64,000 nt of DNA from Candidatus Nomurabacteria bacterium (GTDB lineage: Bacteria; Patescibacteriota; Minisyncoccia; Phycocordibacterales; UBA5272): the NCBI GenBank assembly GCA_037130925.1, contig JBAXSC010000001.1:90896-154895 (forward strand). Reading direction: 5' to 3'. A model generated the notes under the pieces. It searched no databases and was not told where the DNA came from. It saw only the letters and a program-made list of their open reading frames with translations. The position numbers and the translations under genes were made by a program. Shown piece after piece: positions 2,588-57,852 of this stretch (positions within the stretch are counted from its first letter, which is position 1; the number at the start of each line of letters is the position of its first letter).

Positions 2588-4135
2588 TTACATTATTTTT
2601 CTTTTTTCTACTTCAAAGGCTTCTATTACGTCTCCAGGGATAATTTCTATTTTACTTTCTATCATTATTCCACATTCGTTTCCTTCTAAGACTTCATTTG
2701 TCTTAATTTTCATACTTTGAAGCTCTATAACTTTTCCAGAGCCAATTTCAAAATCTCTTCTAAATACTTTTACTTTCGCATTTAATTTTATACTTCCTTC
2801 TTGAACTTTTCCTCCAAGGACATGTTTATCTTTTGAAACTGAGAAGATTTTTAAGATTTTTAATTTTCCTAAACTTTTTTCAATTTCTTCATGAGGAAGT
2901 CTTGCTTCAACTTTTTCTTTCCACCATTCTGCTAATTTATAAATAATATCAAAAGTAATTGGTGTTATTCCTAGTCTTTCTCCTTCATCTCTGGCTTTGG
3001 TTTCAATTTTCACATTAAATCCAATTATGAGAACATTTTCATCATGTGCTGTACCTAAAATATCTGTCTCTGTAATATTTCCAATTCCTCCTCCGATAAT
3101 TTTAACTTTAATACCAGTCTCCATATCTGTCTTTTCATTGTGTTCTATTTTTTTGATTTCTCTTTCTACAGCTGTCAAAGTACCAAGTGTGTCAGCTTTT
3201 AAGATTACAGGAATAACAAGCTTTGCATTACGATAAACTTTTGTATCTAAAACTTTATGAACAGAATCGTTTAATCTTTCTGCCTGAATCTTTTCTAATT
3301 CTTTTCTGTCAGAACTTGAGAAAAAAGTCTTATTAACTTTTGGAGCACTGTCGAATCCTGTCACTTTTACGACTTGTCCTGCATGGGCCATAGAAATAGG
3401 CTTGCCAGCAAAATCTTCTACTATACGAATAGGCGAGAGAGATGTATCTGCGAGTATAGCTCCAGATTTTGGCATAATACCGTCTTTTATTATTAAAGTT
3501 GAGGAAATGCCTCTCTTACCATCCAATAGTGACTCTAGAATAAATCCTGTAGCATCTTTTGATGAATCGTATGTGAAGTCTGACATTTCTGCGATAAGTA
3601 AAATAGTCTCAAGTAATTCAGGGATTCCTTTTTTAGTTTTTGAATCTATTTCAACAAAAGAAACATCTCCTCCCATTCCTTCTATATAAACCCCATTTTC
3701 AATTAAAGAATTTTTTGTTCTTTGAATATTTGCATTTGGTTTATCAACTTTACTGATAGCGACAAGATAAGGAACTTTATTTTCAACAATTATTTTGTGA
3801 GCTTCTATAGTTTGTGGCATTACTCCGTCTTCAGCAGAAACGATTAAAATAGCAATATCTGCTATTTTTGCTCCACTTTCACGCATTGATCCAAAAGCCT
3901 CGTGTCCGGGTGTGTCTAAGAAAGTAATTTTCTTAACTTCTTTTTTGTCTTTTAATTCATGAGAAATTTCATAGGCACTCACATGTTGTGTGATTCCGCC
4001 AATTTCTCCATCTACTATATTTGAATTGCGAATAGCGTCTAATAATGAGCTTTTTCCATGATCAACATGACCCATAACTACTACTACAGGCTGTCTTTCT
4101 TTTAAATTTGATTCTTGATTTTTGTCTTGTGACAT
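2588..4135 (-). CDS. infB: translation initiation factor IF-2 (short N-terminus)
   Basis: 515-aa ORF with GTPase G1 [24 protein letters not shown] and the IF-2 C-terminal domains. It lacks the long N-terminal region of the E. coli type. Confidence 0.95.
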
Positions 4136-39371: not shown

Positions 39372-39893
39372 ATGAATTTCTTACTTTTTCCGCTTGGAAA
39401 TTTTGGTGCAAAATATGAGGAAACTAGACATAATGCTGGTAGATTTGTATTGTCAGAATTACAAAAGAAAAGTCTTTTGGATGAATTTTCTAATTTAGAG
39501 ATTTATATTCCAAAGTGCTACATGAACGAATCAGGTGAATATTTAAAGGATTATCTTAGAAATAAAAATATCGAAAAAGAAAATATTATAGTCATGTATG
39601 ATGACAAAGATCTAGAAATAGGCGAAGTGAGACTTGTCAGAGATAGGGGAGATGGTGGACATAATGGTCTCAAAAATATAATTGAAAATATAAATACAAA
39701 AGATTTTTATAGAATCAGAATTGGCATTGCTCCAATTGGTACCGGTAAAAATAATCTTGTTCCGCCACACGGAGACATTGTCAGAGAATATGTTTTACAA
39801 AAAATGAGTGATGAAGAAAAAGAAATTCTTTCTTCAAAAGAAATTTTAGAAAAAGTTTCAAATTTTATTTTTAAAATTTTAAATGAAAAATAA
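39372..39893 (+). CDS. pth: peptidyl-tRNA hydrolase
   Basis: 173-aa ORF with GNFGAKYEETRHNAGRFVL and GDGGHNGLKNI motifs. Confidence 0.9.
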   Translation: MNFLLFPLGNFGAKYEETRHNAGRFVLSELQKKSLLDEFSNLEIYIPKCYMNESGEYLKDYLRNKNIEKENIIVMYDDKDLEIGEVRLVRDRGDGGHNGLKNIIENINTKDFYRIRIGIAPIGTGKNNLVPPHGDIVREYVLQKMSDEEKEILSSKEILEKVSNFIFKILNEK

Positions 39894-39922
39894 AAAAGCC
39901 ACAAATTAATATGGCTTTTTTG
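39892..39922. repeat. left direct repeat / terminator hairpin flanking the RT module
   Basis: aaaaaagccAcaaattaatATgGcttttttg. It matches 41638..41668 at 25 of 30 positions and includes a compensatory A-T to G-C change in the stem. Confidence 0.7.
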
Positions 39923-39935
39923 TTTTAAAAATTAA

Positions 39936-41354
39936 TTAAGAACTTATTTTTTCTAAATGTTCAATGAATAAATTCATTGGTTTTAATACCTGTAAAGGTA
40001 TATCTTCATCTTTGTAAATATTTTTTATAAACGAAATATATCCTTTGGCCTGATTGATTATCTTAGCTTTTTTGTCTTCTTCTTTTGTTGCTAAATAAAA
40101 GACTGATCTAATTTTTCTTTGAGTATTTTTGGGTATGGTCGGATTTAATCCAAACCAAGGAGTAAAATGTCTTAATGCTTGTCTTGCTCCTTTTATCCTT
40201 AAATATCTAAGATGTTTTAAATCTTGTCTATTTTTTCTTTTTTTAACAAGTCTTAAGCCTGTAACCATCGGATTTTCGTATTCACATTCATACACATGGA
40301 TTTTTCCCATATTAAATTTCCAAAAAGAAGTAAGTTCTACCTGTTTTATTAATTTTAATAATCTTTTAGTGATTGTAGATTTATTATCTTTAGTATTATA
40401 AACACTAATAGTTATACTATCTACATAAACAGATATTCCGTTATAGCCAGCGTTTACAAAAGATTTTGGAATTTTATTTTCTAAAAATTCTTTTTCAAAT
40501 AGATCTAAAATGTCACCATTAGATAAAATTAAAGCCATTAATATATTTGAAGTATTATAACCTTGCGGCATTATTCCTTCACAAGTAACTATTGTTGATA
40601 ATATCTCAGCCATCTTTTTACAAATAGCATAGACGTCATCATAATGTTCTGGAGACCTGATAAGTTTTCTGAGATAAGGATAATCCTTATTAGGAAAAAG
40701 TAATATTCTTTTTCCTGTAAGGTTTCTAACTCTATAGCCGCTTATCCAGTAATAAATTTTTTTATTTCTCCATTTTTCTTTTGTGTCCATTCTCTTTTTA
40801 AAAGCTTGAACTTCTGTAAAACCTTCTATTATTACCTCTTCTTTAGACCTTTTTTCTTTACGGTTAAAAGGTAGTTTTTGAGACAATTTTTTCTGTTGTA
40901 TTTCATGAAGTATATTTTCATGGTAATAATAGTATTTTCTCCTATGTTCGTTCATTTCAGATAAAAAAATATTAAGTAATATGTCTTCTATCTGTTCTTT
41001 AGTGATACAATGAAAAGCGTCTCTTATGTCTACATCTATAATAAATTTAGGAGCCATAAGAGTGTGAGGCAGTATTCCATCCATTACGGACTTGTTTTTC
41101 ATACCGCCACAACAATGTTTAGAAATAAGGTTCAAATGAAAAATTTTTTTAAAGAAGTTTATATAAATATTTTTTACAACTTCCTTTGTTACTCTTGTGG
41201 GAGCGTGAATAGTTCTAAATCCACCACTTTTTTTAGGTTCTTTTTTAACTCTAAACGTGGGGTTACTATAAGCTTCTTCAATCAACTTATAGTCTAATTT
41301 TGTATAGTGTGCCAATATTTCTATAGCAAGACTATAAATTGATTGTTCGTCCAT
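39936..41354 (-). CDS. retron-like reverse transcriptase with YVDS catalytic motif and a large motif A-B insertion
   Basis: 472-aa ORF. Readable RT motifs are KKSGGFRTIHAP (RT1/2), GMKNKSVMDGILPH (RT3 region), FIIDVDIRDAF (motif A), MPQGYNTSNIL (motif B), ISVYVDSITIS (motif C) and NPMVTGLRL (VTG, a retron hallmark). Its layout is collinear with my memory of Ec86 RT. Confidence 0.8.
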   Translation of the reverse strand: MDEQSIYSLAIEILAHYTKLDYKLIEEAYSNPTFRVKKEPKKSGGFRTIHAPTRVTKEVVKNIYINFFKKIFHLNLISKHCCGGMKNKSVMDGILPHTLMAPKFIIDVDIRDAFHCITKEQIEDILLNIFLSEMNEHRRKYYYYHENILHEIQQKKLSQKLPFNRKEKRSKEEVIIEGFTEVQAFKKRMDTKEKWRNKKIYYWISGYRVRNLTGKRILLFPNKDYPYLRKLIRSPEHYDDVYAICKKMAEILSTIVTCEGIMPQGYNTSNILMALILSNGDILDLFEKEFLENKIPKSFVNAGYNGISVYVDSITISVYNTKDNKSTITKRLLKLIKQVELTSFWKFNMGKIHVYECEYENPMVTGLRLVKKRKNRQDLKHLRYLRIKGARQALRHFTPWFGLNPTIPKNTQRKIRSVFYLATKEEDKKAKIINQAKGYISFIKNIYKDEDIPLQVLKPMNLFIEHLEKISS

Positions 41355-41590
41355 TTTAAATAATTTTATTTGTTAATTAATTCGATTTTGAAAGAGCGAT
41401 TGGCTGGGCCCTGGATTTTTTAAATCCAGGGTTTGATTTTCATTCTATTCGGCACGAATGCCTTTGTTATGTAAGTTCGATGCCTGATAAGGCACCTCTC
41501 TCATTATGTCTTTTGGTCAGCTAGATACTAACTGACACATTAAAACCAGACTATTCAATGAAAAAACATCAATAGAGAACCCCAGTTAAT
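41355..41590 (-). ncRNA. structured non-coding leader co-transcribed with the RT (candidate RT template/msr-msd-like RNA)
   Basis: About 235 nt lie between the predicted TSS and the RT ATG, GC-richer than the flanks. Minus-strand hairpins include ccctggattt-aaa-aaatccaggg (10 bp), ggca-UUCG-tgcc, tgcc-ttatca-ggca and gtcag-(11 nt)-ctgac. There is no credible ORF. Confidence 0.5.
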
Positions 41591-41593
41591 TTA

Positions 41594-41622
41594 ATATTAT
41601 ATCTTTTTGTTAATGTTGTCAA
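41594..41622 (-). promoter_or_regulatory. sigma-70-type promoter for the ncRNA-RT transcript
   Basis: Minus strand TTGACA (41622..41617), a 17-nt spacer, then TAATAT (41599..41594). An overlapping TATAAT lies at 41601..41596. Confidence 0.55.
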
Positions 41623-41637
41623 TTTGATTTTAAAAAT

Positions 41638-41668
41638 AAAAAAGCCGCAAATTAATGCGACTTTTTCT
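41638..41668. repeat. right direct repeat / terminator hairpin flanking the RT module
   Basis: aaaaaagccGcaaattaatGCgActttttct. It is homologous to 39892..39922 and serves as the terminator of the 82-aa gene on the minus strand. Confidence 0.7.
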
Positions 41669-41691
41669 TAATTTTAAATTGTTAATAACTA

Positions 41692-41940
41692 CTAATAGTG
41701 ATCAGCAACTTTTTGTTTACCTTTTTCAGCTAAGGTGAATAATTCATTTTCCAATTCAAGAAATTGATCATTTGTTATTTCTGATATTTTATTTATATCC
41801 CAAATTGGGAATAATACATTTACATGTTCAGATATAAATTTATCTGCTCCTTTCGCTTGAAAAAGTTGGGAAGATCTAAAAAATTCTTTGGGAACTTCTT
41901 CTTTAACTTTGAATTGATCCTCTTGATGACTTCTAGGCAT
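41692..41940 (-). CDS. hypothetical protein
   Basis: 82-aa ORF, separated from the RT module by the terminator repeat. Confidence 0.45.
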   Translation of the reverse strand: MPRSHQEDQFKVKEEVPKEFFRSSQLFQAKGADKFISEHVNVLFPIWDINKISEITNDQFLELENELFTLAEKGKQKVADHY

Positions 41941-42048
41941 TGTTATAAAATTTAATAGTTAAGAATAATATTAGAAAGAACTTTAATATTAATAACAAAA
42001 AAAGCTTGATTGGTCAAGCTTTTTTTGAATATTTCAATATTTTATTGA

Positions 42049-53428: not shown

Positions 53429-56156
53429 TCATAAAAATCAGTGTTCAAAAATATTAATAAATATTAAAAACTATTTTAGTTTATTTTTTGCTTAAATATT
53501 GTTATTTTTAACAGAAAAAAGTATTTGATTTTAGCCAGATTTCCCTTATTTTTTGTAGTTTTTTATAAAAATAAATTAATAATAGAGATTTAGACTAAAT
53601 TGCTTGCATTTTTTTTTGGCTTATGATAAGATACTAAAACCTAAATATGTTAAATAATTTAAATATCTAATTGAGCAGCTGATGACAGAAGTGTTCTGTT
53701 ATAGCCGCTCGAAAAGCGGTTTTAATTTTTAAAAATATTTAGTTGTAACTTGTAAATAGAATCCCATAGCATAGTCAATTTAGTGTCCCAAACATTTGGG
53801 GTCTTTTCAGACAATGTATATGGATGTGAAAAAAAGGTAAAAATACTGTAAACAAAAATAAAATATCTCGGAGGCAGCGGTGCCCGAGAGATATGGATGG
53901 TAAATATATTTCCTGATAGGAAATAAGAGCATAAGGTGGATGCCTTGGTTCAAGGAAGCGATGAAAGACGTGATCAGGCTGCGATATGTTTCGGGGAGGT
54001 GCCTAATAACCTTCGATCCGGAAATTTCTGAATGAGGAAACTCTCTCAAAGTAATGTTTGAGAATCTAGGGAGCATATCTCTAGAGGCGTACCTGGGGAA
54101 GTAAAACATTTCAGTACCCAGAGGAAAAGAAAACAAAGTTTATTCCGCAAGTAGCGGCGAGCGAAAACGGAGGAGCCCAAACCTACACTAGCAATAGTGT
54201 GGGGGTTGTAGCATAAAGACGTAGAATTATCTAGAAGAGTTACAAAAGTTGATTATAAATTAAGTTGTTGGAAAGCAACGCCAAAGAAGGTGATAGCCCC
54301 GTAATTGAAATTTTCAACTCTCTTTTGTCTTTACTGCTGAGTAGTTCGAGACACGAATAGCTCGGATGAATCTGCCGGAACTAACCGGTAAGGCTAAATA
54401 TTCCTTGAAACCGATAGTGAACTAGTACCGCGAGGGAAAGGTGAAAAGAACCCCGGGAGGGGAGTGAAATAGAACTGAAACCTTATGTTTACAAAGAGTT
54501 GAAGAGGACTTGATCCTCGACAGCGTGCCTATTGAAGAATGAGCCAACGAGTTGTATTATCGAGCTAGGCTAAGCAGCATAAAGTTGCGGAGCCGCTAGC
54601 GAAAGCGAGTGTTAATAGCGCGAAAAATAAGTTCAATAATACAGACCCGAAGCCGGATGAGCTACCCATGAGCAGGGTGAAGCCTATCGAAAGATAGGTG
54701 GAGGCCCGAACTAATAAGTTGTGCGACTCTTTTGGATGACTTGTGGGTTGGAGTGAAAAGCTAATCGAATTCGGTAATAGCTGGTTCTCGTCGAAATATT
54801 TTTTGGAATAGCGTCAGGTGGTCCCTTTGGGGGTAGAGCACTGGAAGGTCTTGACTAGTGGAAACACGGCAATACCTATCAAACTCCGAATACCAAAGAT
54901 TAATAGCCTGGCAGTCAGACTACGGGGGCGAAGCTCCGTCGGTCTAAAGGGAAACAGCCCAGATCTAAAATTAAGGTCCCTAAGTATATGTTAAGTGTAA
55001 GCGAGGATGTGGAGTTTCATTGACAATGAGGATGTTGGCTTAGAAGCAGCCATCATTGAAAGAAAGCGTAACAGCTCACCCATCGAGAGACTCTGCGCCA
55101 CAGATGATCGGGACTCAAACATATCACCGAAGTTTAGGGATTGTATGCTTTATTGTATACAATCGGTAGACGAGTGTTCCACTCTGCGTTGAAGCGGAAG
55201 GGGTGACCCACCGTGGAGCGTGTGGAAGTACGAATGTTGGCACAAGTAACCGCAATGGGGGTGAGATCCCCCCACGCCGAAAGAATAAGGTTTCCTTCGC
55301 AATGATTGTCAGCGAAGGGTTAGTCGGGCCTAAGCAGATGGCTATGCGCCGAATGCGATGGACATAAGGTTAATATTCCTTAACTTGGTATAAATGTGAT
55401 GGAATGACGCATTGTTGTAATTTACGCCTCTTATCAGATTGAGGTCTTTGTAATGATTGGCTAGAGCATGTAAATCAGTTCTAGAATACTGAGAGTTATG
55501 AAGCGAAGGTACTGGCAACAGTATTGAAGGTAGGTGAGCACGGTGCCAAGAAAAGTTTCTACATCTACTGAATAGTAGATATTGTTTTGTGAATAATGGA
55601 TCTAGATTTATCTGTGATCTATTATTCACAAATTTAACAATACTTTAAATTTATATTAATCCGTACCGCAAACCGACACAGGTATTCAGGTCGAGTAGAC
55701 CAAGGCGAACGAGTGATTTCTCCCTAAGGAACTAGGCAAAAAAGCAGCCGTAAGTTAGCAATAAGGCTTGCCGCCATCACTTTGCATTTAATGTGAAGTG
55801 GTTCCTAGAGAATAAAGTGAGACGTAAATAATGTTAGAGCTAATATTATTTACAAAAAAGTTTTAAGAAATTTTTTTTCTAGGGCACTGTCATTTTGAAA
55901 TCAAAGTGATGGCGGCCGCAGCGAAAGTTTCTCTGGCAACTGTTTATCTAAAACACAGCTCCATGCGAACTCGTAAGAGTATGTATATGGGGTGACACCT
56001 GACCAATGCGGGAAGGTCAAATATCGGTGGTCACATTCTATTTTTGAAATTTATATGAATTAGATTTATTTAAGTCGTATATTTTTTGAGGGTAGAATGT
56101 GGCTGACTGATATAAGCCCCCGTCAATGTCGGCGATAACTATAATCGTCCTAAGGT

Positions 56157-56368
56157 TCTGATTATATTTTTAAAATATGATCAGATATTGGGACGAATTA
56201 TGACTAGTGTTTTAAAAATAGTTTTAAATTCATGCATCATTTTAAAAGCTACCCGCACTTATAGAAATATATTATGCGTAAATGTACTCAATTAGAGACC
56301 AACGGTACACATCTTAATCTTGTAAAAGAAAAGATGAAGATAGAGTCCAACTTTTAAAGGAACAGTTG
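56157..56368 (+). mobile_element. ORF-less group I-like intron in 23S rRNA (after the position equivalent to E. coli U1931)
   Basis: A 212-nt insertion splits CCTAAGGT|AGCGAA. The 5' exon ends in U and the insert ends in G. ttgggacg (56188..56195) can pair with exon cgtcctaa. The core string gatgaagatagagtccaac parallels the second intron. Confidence 0.65.
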
Positions 56369-56940
56369 AGCGAAGTTCCTTGTCTGGTAAGTTCAGACGT
56401 GCACGAATGGTGTAATGACTGGGGAACTGTCTCAGGGAGTAGCTCGGTGAAAATACAGTGGCGGTGAAGATGCCGCCTACCTGCAGATAGACGAAAAGAC
56501 CCCGTGAGCTTTACTCTAGCTTGGTATTGTGTTTATTAATTTATTGCGTAGTATAGTGGTGAGAGGTTTGATGGTGTAGGTCTCGGCTTACATTTACTCG
56601 ACAATGAAATAGCCATCTTTAAATTGGTAAACACTAACCTCGGCGGAAAAAACGACGAGAGACAGTATCTGGTGGGGAGTTTTACTGGGGTGGTACCCTC
56701 CTAAAGAGTAACGGAGGGGTTTATTAAGGTCAGTTAGGCGCGAATGGAAACCGTGCCGATAGTGTAATGGCATAAACTGGCTTGACTGTAAGACGGGCAT
56801 GTCGAGCAGATACGAAAGTAGGACATAGTGAACCGACAATTCGCATTAGATGCGGTTGGAGATTAACGGATAGAAGCTACCACGGGGATAACAGGCTAGT
56901 TCCGCCTAAGAGTTCATATCGACGGCGGAGTTCGGCACCT

Positions 56941-57294
56941 TAACTTATGTTACAAGTTCTAAAGAACAACATACATCGGGGTGCCTAGGGCAGTAATGCA
57001 CTATAAAAAATATTTAGCTATATGCTGGAACTCCTGGCCATAATAGTATCTATGACTCAAACAGTAATCTGAAAAGATAAGCTGAGTAGTTTAAAAACAA
57101 TAGATATGCAGGACGATCAGCAGGGAAGACTTCTAAGTTTATGAATAATAAATATGAAGAACCCTCAGAGACTACACGCTAAACTCCTAATTAATTTAGG
57201 ATGAAGATATAGTCCAATCCTCACAGCAATGTGGGAAGATACGTGTTTCGTCACACGTGCAATAGGAGATTTAAGATAGATCAGAACCAGACAG
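56941..57294 (+). mobile_element. ORF-less group I intron in 23S rRNA (after the position equivalent to E. coli U2500)
   Basis: A 354-nt insertion splits GGCACCT|CGATGTCGG. The internal guide ggggtgcc (56978..56985) pairs with exon ggcacct, giving a U-G wobble at the splice site. The terminal nucleotide is G at 57294. Conserved core strings cagagactacacg and gaagatatagtcc are present. Confidence 0.85.
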
Positions 57295-57327
57295 CGATGT
57301 CGGCTCATCTTATCCTGGGGCTGGAGA

Positions 57328-57360
<33 letters not shown>

Positions 57361-57852
57361 AAGATACGCGAGCTGGGTTCAAACCGTCGTGAGACAGGTT
57401 GGTCTCCTATCTACTGCAGGCGTTTGAATATTGAGGAGATTTGTCTCTAGTACGAGAGGACCGAGATGAACTGACCTCTGGTATATGGGCTCTAGCGCTA
57501 GCTGGACCGCCCAGTAGCCAAGTCGGGAATGGATAAGTTCTGAAAGCATCTAAGAACGAAGCCAACTCCAAGATAAGTATTCGATTGAGGGTCGTAAGAG
57601 ATGATTACGTTGATAGGATCTAAGTGTACGCACAGTAATGTGTTCAGCTGAGGATTACTAATAACCCGATCTTGTCAGGTAATATGTTTATCATGAAAGT
57701 AGTTTTTATTTTTATTTATATTTCACTTCTGAATTCTAGGAATTGGTTCTTGTAATCAATTTTTAGAATTCAGATGTGAAAATTGTATTCTTTTTTCACA
57801 TTTTAGATTCTAATAACAAACAGATTTACTCAAAAAATTTATTTTTTGAGTA

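Follow-up and report, generated by a model that had tools for sequence, protein, structure and literature searches.

Retron reverse transcriptases (RTs) carry two sequence signatures, a VTG triplet in RT7 (region Y) and, in region X (the segment that separates RT2 from RT3), an NAxxH motif (PMC7736814). According to the available text of PMC8632793, a further component accompanies about 75% of retrons, and about 80% of the RTs of the candidate phyla radiation are those of diversity-generating retroelements (DGRs); on these figures, a retron-like element of that radiation that lacks an effector is a minority case. Here, we report a retron-like RT gene whose motif C reads YVDS, and the structured noncoding RNA (ncRNA) encoded directly upstream of it, in a 64,000-nucleotide (nt) stretch of DNA (the window) from Candidatus Nomurabacteria bacterium (GenBank assembly GCA_037130925.1, contig JBAXSC010000001.1, positions 90,896 to 154,895 of the forward strand). 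Judged from the alignments, the altered motif is part of a conserved, recurrent rewiring of the periphery of the RT active site in this new retron-like RT-ncRNA element.

YxDD serves to define an active RT operationally, by annotation pipelines as well as by mutational controls (for example, YADD to YAAA). Viral RNA-dependent RNA polymerases (RdRps), and also one structure of human immunodeficiency virus (HIV) RT, hold a noncatalytic third ion site 4 to 6 Å from metal A, between the strands of motifs A and C (available text of PMC3394715). The ion is coordinated, in that description, by the residue that takes the place of the second Asp in motif C and by one that precedes the motif A Asp by at most three positions, the motif A ligand in RdRps and HIV RT being mostly a backbone carbonyl or the catalytic Asp itself; according to the same text, Mn2+ restores activity to second-Asp mutants of poliovirus RdRp and of HIV RT. 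Birnaviruses and Mononegavirales have a natural Asn at the second-Asp position (available text of PMC4634563).

Active-site motifs of the RT

The RT open reading frame (ORF; 39936..41354, minus strand; 472 amino acids [aa]; P0001) was identified as retron-like from the ORF list, Pfam, NCBIfam, PADLOC, a PDB profile search, and Foldseek. In-frame codons TAT GTA GAT AGT at 40427..40416 (minus strand) encode Y310, V311, D312, and S313 within GISVYVDSITISV, confirming from the codons the YVDS reported for this site in an earlier note made from the DNA alone. The motif (40416..40427) lies where that note had placed it, because the profile alignment carries it onto motif C of Ec67 RT: the family pattern S-v-Y-v-D-n-i-t-l-S was aligned with S-R-Y-A-D-D-I-T-I-S of Ec67 in the PDB profile search. 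The residue replaced by Ser is thus the second Asp of the true motif C, which does not lie elsewhere in the protein.

Motif A (F104 to C116, FIIDVDIRDAFHC; 41007..41045, minus strand) contains the catalytic D109 (41028..41030) and, two residues before it in F104-I-I-D107-V-D109, a second acid, D107 (41034..41036). The earlier note had quoted FIIDVDIRD for D109, correctly, and had overlooked both the first Asp of FIIDVD and the upstream ncRNA. Motif B (MPQGYNTSNILMAL, aa 262 to 275; 40530..40571, minus strand) has Q264, G265, T268, and S269 invariant in the family. A VTG triplet of the retron type is present in RT7 (V364-T365-G366; 40257..40265, minus strand; family alignment); of 17 family proteins, 10 have the strict triplet and 15 have x-T-G, with G366 invariant. 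In region X, the nearly invariant H97 falls on the Ec86 His in the alignment; the window protein has G-I-L-P-H, and other members have N-V-x-x-H.

By every library used, the predicted protein is a reverse transcriptase, but a divergent one. Its Pfam RVT_1 score (28.9 bits) did not reach the gathering cut-off (29.6); a large insertion splits the match. The NCBIfam model of the retron St85 RT (NF038233) matched at an E value of 3e-14 (53 bits; curated cut-off, 235), and several PADLOC retron RT models matched at 1e-16 to 1e-17 (top score, 60.8 bits). In the PDB, the family profile matched only retron RTs (Ec67, Ec86, Kva2, Ec83, and Ec78; E values, 3e-10 to 2e-4).

The AlphaFold2 model (15-sequence alignment; mean predicted local distance difference test [pLDDT], 79.4; predicted template modeling score, 0.75) has motif C as a beta hairpin (strands 307 to 310 and 313 to 318, with V311-D312 at the turn). 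The motif A strand (104 to 109) carries both D107 and D109; residues 105, 107, and 109 alternate on this one strand, and residue 313 opens the adjacent strand. That D107 and S313 would lie close together is drawn by analogy from published structures and from strand geometry, not from model distances. Foldseek searches of the model against the PDB returned Eco7 (9kjx_A; E value, 5e-9) at the top, followed by Ec78, Ec86, and Eco2; ranks 1 to 15 were all retron RTs, and group II intron RTs, DRT9, DGR, AbiK, UG15, and DRT2 ranked below.

The insertion, about 100 aa long, lies between motifs A and B (aa 119 to 220; 40695..41000, minus strand) and was delimited from the model and from a gap in alignments with retron RTs. 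It was modeled as a long helical hairpin (helices 119 to 158 and 171 to 189), with low confidence (pLDDT below 50) at 161 to 168 and 188 to 213. It occupies the site of RT3a, or the fingers insertion, of other RTs, and its length differs across the family.

Family and conservation of the Ser

A word-indexed search of 5.8 billion proteins gave 15 family proteins, and a later search with the family profile gave the same 15. An exhaustive search of representatives returned 163 matches at E values of ≤1e-3, just 8 of them at ≤1e-30; the family is therefore small. YVDS was found again in three full-length proteins (P0002, P0003, and P0004; 68 to 71% identity) and in a fragment (P0005; 74%), drawn from JGI, Logan/ENA, and NCBI. 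This recurrence excludes the single-base assembly error that the earlier note had listed as an option, and the codon comparison agrees with its own remark that a simple error was unlikely: Ser AGT is two base changes from Asp GAT, and Asn AAC, the one-step intermediate, is carried by the nearest sisters of the Ser group.

Aligned across the family, position 313 is Ser in the window protein and P0002 to P0005, Asn in P0006 to P0009, P0014, and the protein of locus L003, Gly in P0011 to P0013, and Asp in P0010, P0015, P0016, P0017, and the protein of locus L006, with Y310 and D312 invariant beside it. The ortholog comparison that the earlier note had called for thus shows the Ser kept in its nearest relatives and the site variable beyond them. 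The rest of the palm is intact, as had been claimed: D109 is present in every homologue spanning that column, and K41 and R47 (fingers), D112-A-F114 (motif A), Q264-G265-x-x-T268-S269 (motif B), K325 (motif D), and W345/N348/K351 are invariant or nearly so. The family alignment has 41 invariant columns.

P0009 (locus L001) has a decoy, G-Y-V-D-D-F, in its insertion, upstream of the true motif C (A-I-Y-V-D-N-I); a plain motif scan would mis-score this protein as YVDD, its true state being E107/N313.

Coupling of positions 107 and 313

Residue 107 follows the state of residue 313. Among the 18 family members with both motifs, D or E stands at 107 in all 13 that have S, N, or G at 313, and K stands there in all 5 that have D313. 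A wider alignment comprised all 159 proteins gathered by the word-indexed and exhaustive searches, of which 13 were dropped for a gap at a catalytic column (mostly fragments; P0043 was misaligned) and 146 were used. All 146 rows have D at both catalytic columns (109 and 312). Position 313 is D in 106 rows, N in 27, G in 7, S in 5, and E in 1. An acid at 107 (D or E) occurs in 0 of the 106 YxDD rows and 16 of the 40 non-Asp rows, and a base (K or R) occurs in 66 and 2, respectively. The second E/N group was extended with a profile of the neighboring clade (at least six proteins found, three of them new), and the three extra relatives are all E107/N313.

Across about 470 columns, mutual information with the D/non-D state of 313 was highest for column 107 (0.605 of 0.847 bits; runner-up, 0.481), which also ranked first when charge classes only were used (0.359; runner-up, 0.159). 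In the 42-row subclade that comprises the window family and its sister clade, the information in column 107 was 0.974 of 0.974 bits (runner-up, 0.692).

Trees were built with columns 107 and 313 removed or masked. On a FastTree of 141 rows, non-D313 required seven changes and acidic 107 required five. An IQ-TREE of 18 family rows and 7 outgroups had K107/D313 in the outgroups, the basal pair (P0017 and the L006 protein), P0010, and P0015; because outgroups and basal members agree, K/D is taken as the ancestral state. The E/N trio formed one clade, and a clade of 11 rows (support, 95/97) was all D107/non-Asp but for the nested P0016 (K/D). Each trait required three changes on this tree, with the paired changes on the same branch (judged by eye). 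The codons are compatible with single-base steps at both positions, from AAA/AAG (K) through GAA (E) to GAT (D) at 107 and from GAT/GAC (D) through AAC (N) to AGT (S), or to GGG (G), at 313.

The ncRNA and the cassette

The RT is the sole protein gene of a 1.75-kb cassette that reads, on the minus strand, upstream terminator, promoter, G+C-richer ncRNA, RT, and terminator. The ncRNA is conserved and structured, about 200 nt long, and lies directly upstream of the RT (41391..41588, minus strand; fold, covariation, and covariance model R1). Folded as a single sequence, the window copy had a z score of -4.7, better than 200 of 200 shuffles. The ncRNA was found also upstream of the RT at loci L001, L002, L003, and L005, and the five-sequence alignment had 39 predicted pairs, 92.7% of cells paired, and 17 pairs with compensatory changes; none of 500 shuffles was as good, and slid controls had at most 4 compensatory pairs. 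Supported helices include a covarying terminal stem that joins the 5' and 3' ends (a short closing stem of 4 to 6 bp) and a 3' hairpin varied in sequence and constant in structure. Sequence itself is conserved in two hairpins and a single-stranded block, UAGAAUGAAAU.

Covariance model R1 scored 116 bits in the window and 156 to 184 bits at the four other loci, and it found one copy of the ncRNA in the 0.70-Mb genome. At L006, R1 found no ncRNA at E values of ≤1, despite a gap of 537 nt upstream of the RT. Searches of Rfam gave the ncRNA no family match, with sub-threshold matches only, on terminator-like hairpins. One YVDD member (L005) and four non-Asp members have this ncRNA ahead of the RT gene, so both kinds of RT appear to do the same job.

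A sigma-70-like promoter (TTGACA, 17 nt, TAATAT; 41594..41622, minus strand) precedes the ncRNA as a consensus match only (10 of 12 positions). The terminator-like hairpin of the upstream 82-aa ORF (41638..41667, minus strand) forms one border of the cassette, and another such hairpin follows the RT (39892..39921, minus strand). Two copies of an 81-nt direct repeat, 70% identical and 1,746 nt apart, flank the cassette (39864..39944 and 41610..41690; no strand applies). Each copy holds a terminator-like hairpin and resembles the single terminator found at the same site in a genome of the same genus (G002); by its sequence, the repeat apparently arose as the cassette inserted, through duplication of the target or of a terminator. 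At L006, a 35-nt terminator-like direct repeat (1141 to 1175 and 3033 to 3067; 74% identity, 1,892 nt apart) also flanks the RT cassette, and no flanking direct repeat was found at the other four loci at the same settings.

Neighboring genes, judged from ORF starts, are housekeeping-like (MreB-, AlaRS-, and ScpA/B-like) and differ in all six loci; no conserved effector gene is therefore evident. Within the RT itself, the one additional segment is the helical insertion at aa 119 to 220.

Distribution

Among 61 genomes searched (14 of the same genus, 22 others of the family, 24 of the order, and the window's own), the RT was found in the window's own genome only. A match in genome G006 (E value, 4.9e-4) was rejected by eye; the 451-aa ORF looks like a secreted solute-binding protein. 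Pattern scans found three loci in 185,579 species genomes and three in a metagenome collection; in viral contigs, the pattern scan matched 73 stretches, none encoding a relative of the family.

Two genomes of the same genus (G002 and G004) keep the gene order hisS, lepB, pth, rpsA (named from ORF reading) and have no RT. The slot between pth and rpsA varies within the genus: it holds a 163-aa ORF in G002 (L010/L011 comparison), a 119-aa ORF in G004, and the RT cassette plus the 82-aa ORF in the window (39894 to 42048). Absence of the RT from genomes of the same genus, the variable slot, and the flanking repeat together point to a cassette that is an acquired accessory element. By analogy with retrons and with RT-ncRNA systems that have a single gene, we infer that it may have a role in phage defense.

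In the ESM Atlas, language-model features place P0001 nearest to clusters of RVT_1 proteins about 400 aa long. Few cluster members have taxon labels, and most of those are Uroviricota (tailed phages). Relatives of the P0001 clade may thus be phage-borne, a lead only. Elsewhere in the window, a 23S rRNA match (53913 to 57680) spans 3,768 nt against a model of 2,925 positions; it holds a group I intron at 56967 to 57236 (86.7 bits), and its length leaves room for another insertion.

Interpretation

We favor, at about even confidence, an active stand-alone retron-like RT-ncRNA element whose third carboxylate, belonging to a noncatalytic ion site, is now provided by motif A instead of motif C. The protein would be a functional RT working with the structured RNA of about 200 nt transcribed just upstream. 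From a K107/D313 ancestor, the second Asp of motif C would have been replaced stepwise, first by Asn and then by Ser, and on the same branches Lys107 would have become Glu and then Asp. Residues 107 and 313 would face each other between the strands of motifs A and C, at the third ion site beside metal A of the published structures; in K107/D313 members, the Lys amine presumably pairs with the Asp. The invariant D109 and D312 would perform two-metal catalysis, and D107 would supply an auxiliary carboxylate from the opposite strand, probably altering metal preference or rate. We infer from this scheme continued polymerization by P0001, D107 as a metal ligand, and a defensive or other accessory role for the cassette. 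The wider proposition that this is a natural, recurrent relocation of a carboxylate, from the second Asp of motif C to the position two before the motif A Asp and out of an ancestral Lys-Asp pair, is put forward tentatively, at somewhat less than even confidence. On either statement the pair seems rewired and not destroyed, and the enzyme looks rewired and not dead.

Several observations weigh against this explanation. P0016 (K/D) is nested in the D107 clade on two long branches, which would require a reversal or a tree artifact. Independent events are few: with three well-supported pairs, a sign test on independent pairs gave median p values of 0.25 to 0.5, an underpowered test; the argument thus draws its statistical weight from the counts, the rank of column 107 in mutual information, and a direction of change that is consistent. 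A neighboring clade of 21 rows (support, 97) combines N, G, or S at 313 with, for the most part, Q107 and so has an acid at neither position; loss of D313 does not, then, generally demand an acidic 107, and a purely structural role for the pair has a place among the readings. The family falls under the curated cut-offs of both Pfam and NCBIfam. Finally, in the available text of PMC4634563 and PMC3394715, second-Asp substitutions lower or abolish activity with Mg2+ or alter the metal requirement.

The Q107 clade consists of shorter retron-like RTs (about 300 to 500 aa) with YxD(N/G/S). Its proteins include P0045, P0046, P0057, P0059, P0073, P0087, P0090 to P0092, P0100, P0106, P0113, P0123, P0124, P0126, and P0143.

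The alternative that survives best is a neutral swap of polarity, in which the second Asp is noncatalytic and merely pairs with K or R at 107 beneath the active site, D107 binds no metal, and K-D, E-N, D-S, and Q-N are interchangeable packing solutions in an ordinary two-carboxylate polymerase. The bases at 107 in 66 of 106 YxDD relatives fit it, since they would neutralize D313 and suit a free metal ligand poorly; so do the acid-free Q107 clade and the Asn found two before the motif A Asp in solved retron RTs. We nonetheless consider it rather unlikely: once D313 is lost in the window family and the E/N group, all 16 sequences (and all 3 further ones) have D or E at 107 and not an arbitrary polar residue, and D107 is kept in 3 of 3 sequences with G313, which is unable to pair with it.

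A catalytically dead, exapted RT fold, which would bind the ncRNA only, as scaffold or sensor, and make no DNA, is in our view unlikely. One of the canonical Asp triad is missing, second-Asp substitutions are damaging in other polymerases (as cited above, within the available text), no effector gene or DNA product is known, and the Pfam score is just below threshold, all as such a fold would have it. Set against this, the other catalytic positions and those that bind deoxynucleoside triphosphates are invariant or nearly so across 30 to 74% identity, which would be unexpected after loss of catalysis; YVDD and non-Asp members have one ncRNA in common; and the acidic replacement at 107 recurs. 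Of the two outcomes that the earlier note had posed, altered catalysis or an inactivated or exapted fold, the evidence leans toward the first and away from the second. A sequencing or assembly error, or a decaying pseudogene, has no point in its favor and is very improbable, given an ORF intact at 472 aa, the YVDS of P0002 to P0005, the two base changes needed, and the 41 invariant columns.

Should the wider proposition of a natural, recurrent relocation of the carboxylate hold, YxDD would not be universally required for RT activity, and the third-ion site could be furnished in two different ways, by K/D or by D(E)/N(S,G) pairs. Calls of "dead RT" based on motifs would misclassify these proteins; in the wider retron-like clade, the second Asp is missing in 40 of 146 representatives, with a specific partner position in motif A. 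The family would offer natural coupled variants, in effect double mutants, for the little-studied third-ion site of RNA-templated polymerases, testable by simple swaps. The catalogue of retron-like elements gains a compact 1.75-kb RT-ncRNA cassette without an effector gene from genome-reduced uncultured bacteria.

Comparison with known systems

In the titles and abstracts listed, we found neither a prokaryotic RT family with YxD(N/S/G) nor the coupling between motifs A and C described, a scope outside which subscription journals and supplements lie.

DRT2 and DRT9 have the same layout, one RT gene after its own structured ncRNA and no separate effector. They belong to a different RT clade; Foldseek ranked DRT9 25th and DRT2 49th, behind all retron RTs, and no DRT model was among the best 25 of 29 PADLOC matches to P0001. 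The model of group II intron RTs and maturases (TIGR04416) scored 25.2 bits against a cut-off of 300.

Retron RTs (Ec86/Eco1, Ec67/Eco2, Ec78/Eco7, Ec83, and Eco8) are the best matches of P0001 by profile and by fold. Like them, its family has a VTG triplet in RT7 and a conserved His in region X, and the gene follows a contiguous ncRNA of the same strand whose closing stem covaries and whose 3' hairpin is variable. Unlike retron RTs, the window protein has YVDS in place of YADD and Asp in place of Asn two before the motif A Asp (solved retron RTs), and its family has about 100 aa inserted between motifs A and B and scores far under curated cut-offs. Unlike the roughly 75% of retrons with an additional component in the available text of PMC8632793, the element has no evident effector gene at six loci, and no conserved unpaired G was found beside the ncRNA stem in the alignment. 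Because of the sub-cut-off scores, the lack of a clear NAxxH, of a branching G, and of an effector gene, and the insertion, the element is, as far as its sequence can place it, retron-like and not a retron type.

The enzymes of Mononegavirales (GDN) and birnaviruses (ADN) are likewise palm RNA-templated polymerases that are active with Asn at the second-Asp position; they are viral RNA polymerases and not RTs, and the available text of PMC4634563 and PMC3394715 describes no compensating acid two before the motif A Asp. The two positions that covary here also build the third ion site of RdRps and HIV RT (available text of PMC3394715). Unlike at that site, the side chain at 107 in the present family switches between Lys and Asp/Glu together with motif C.

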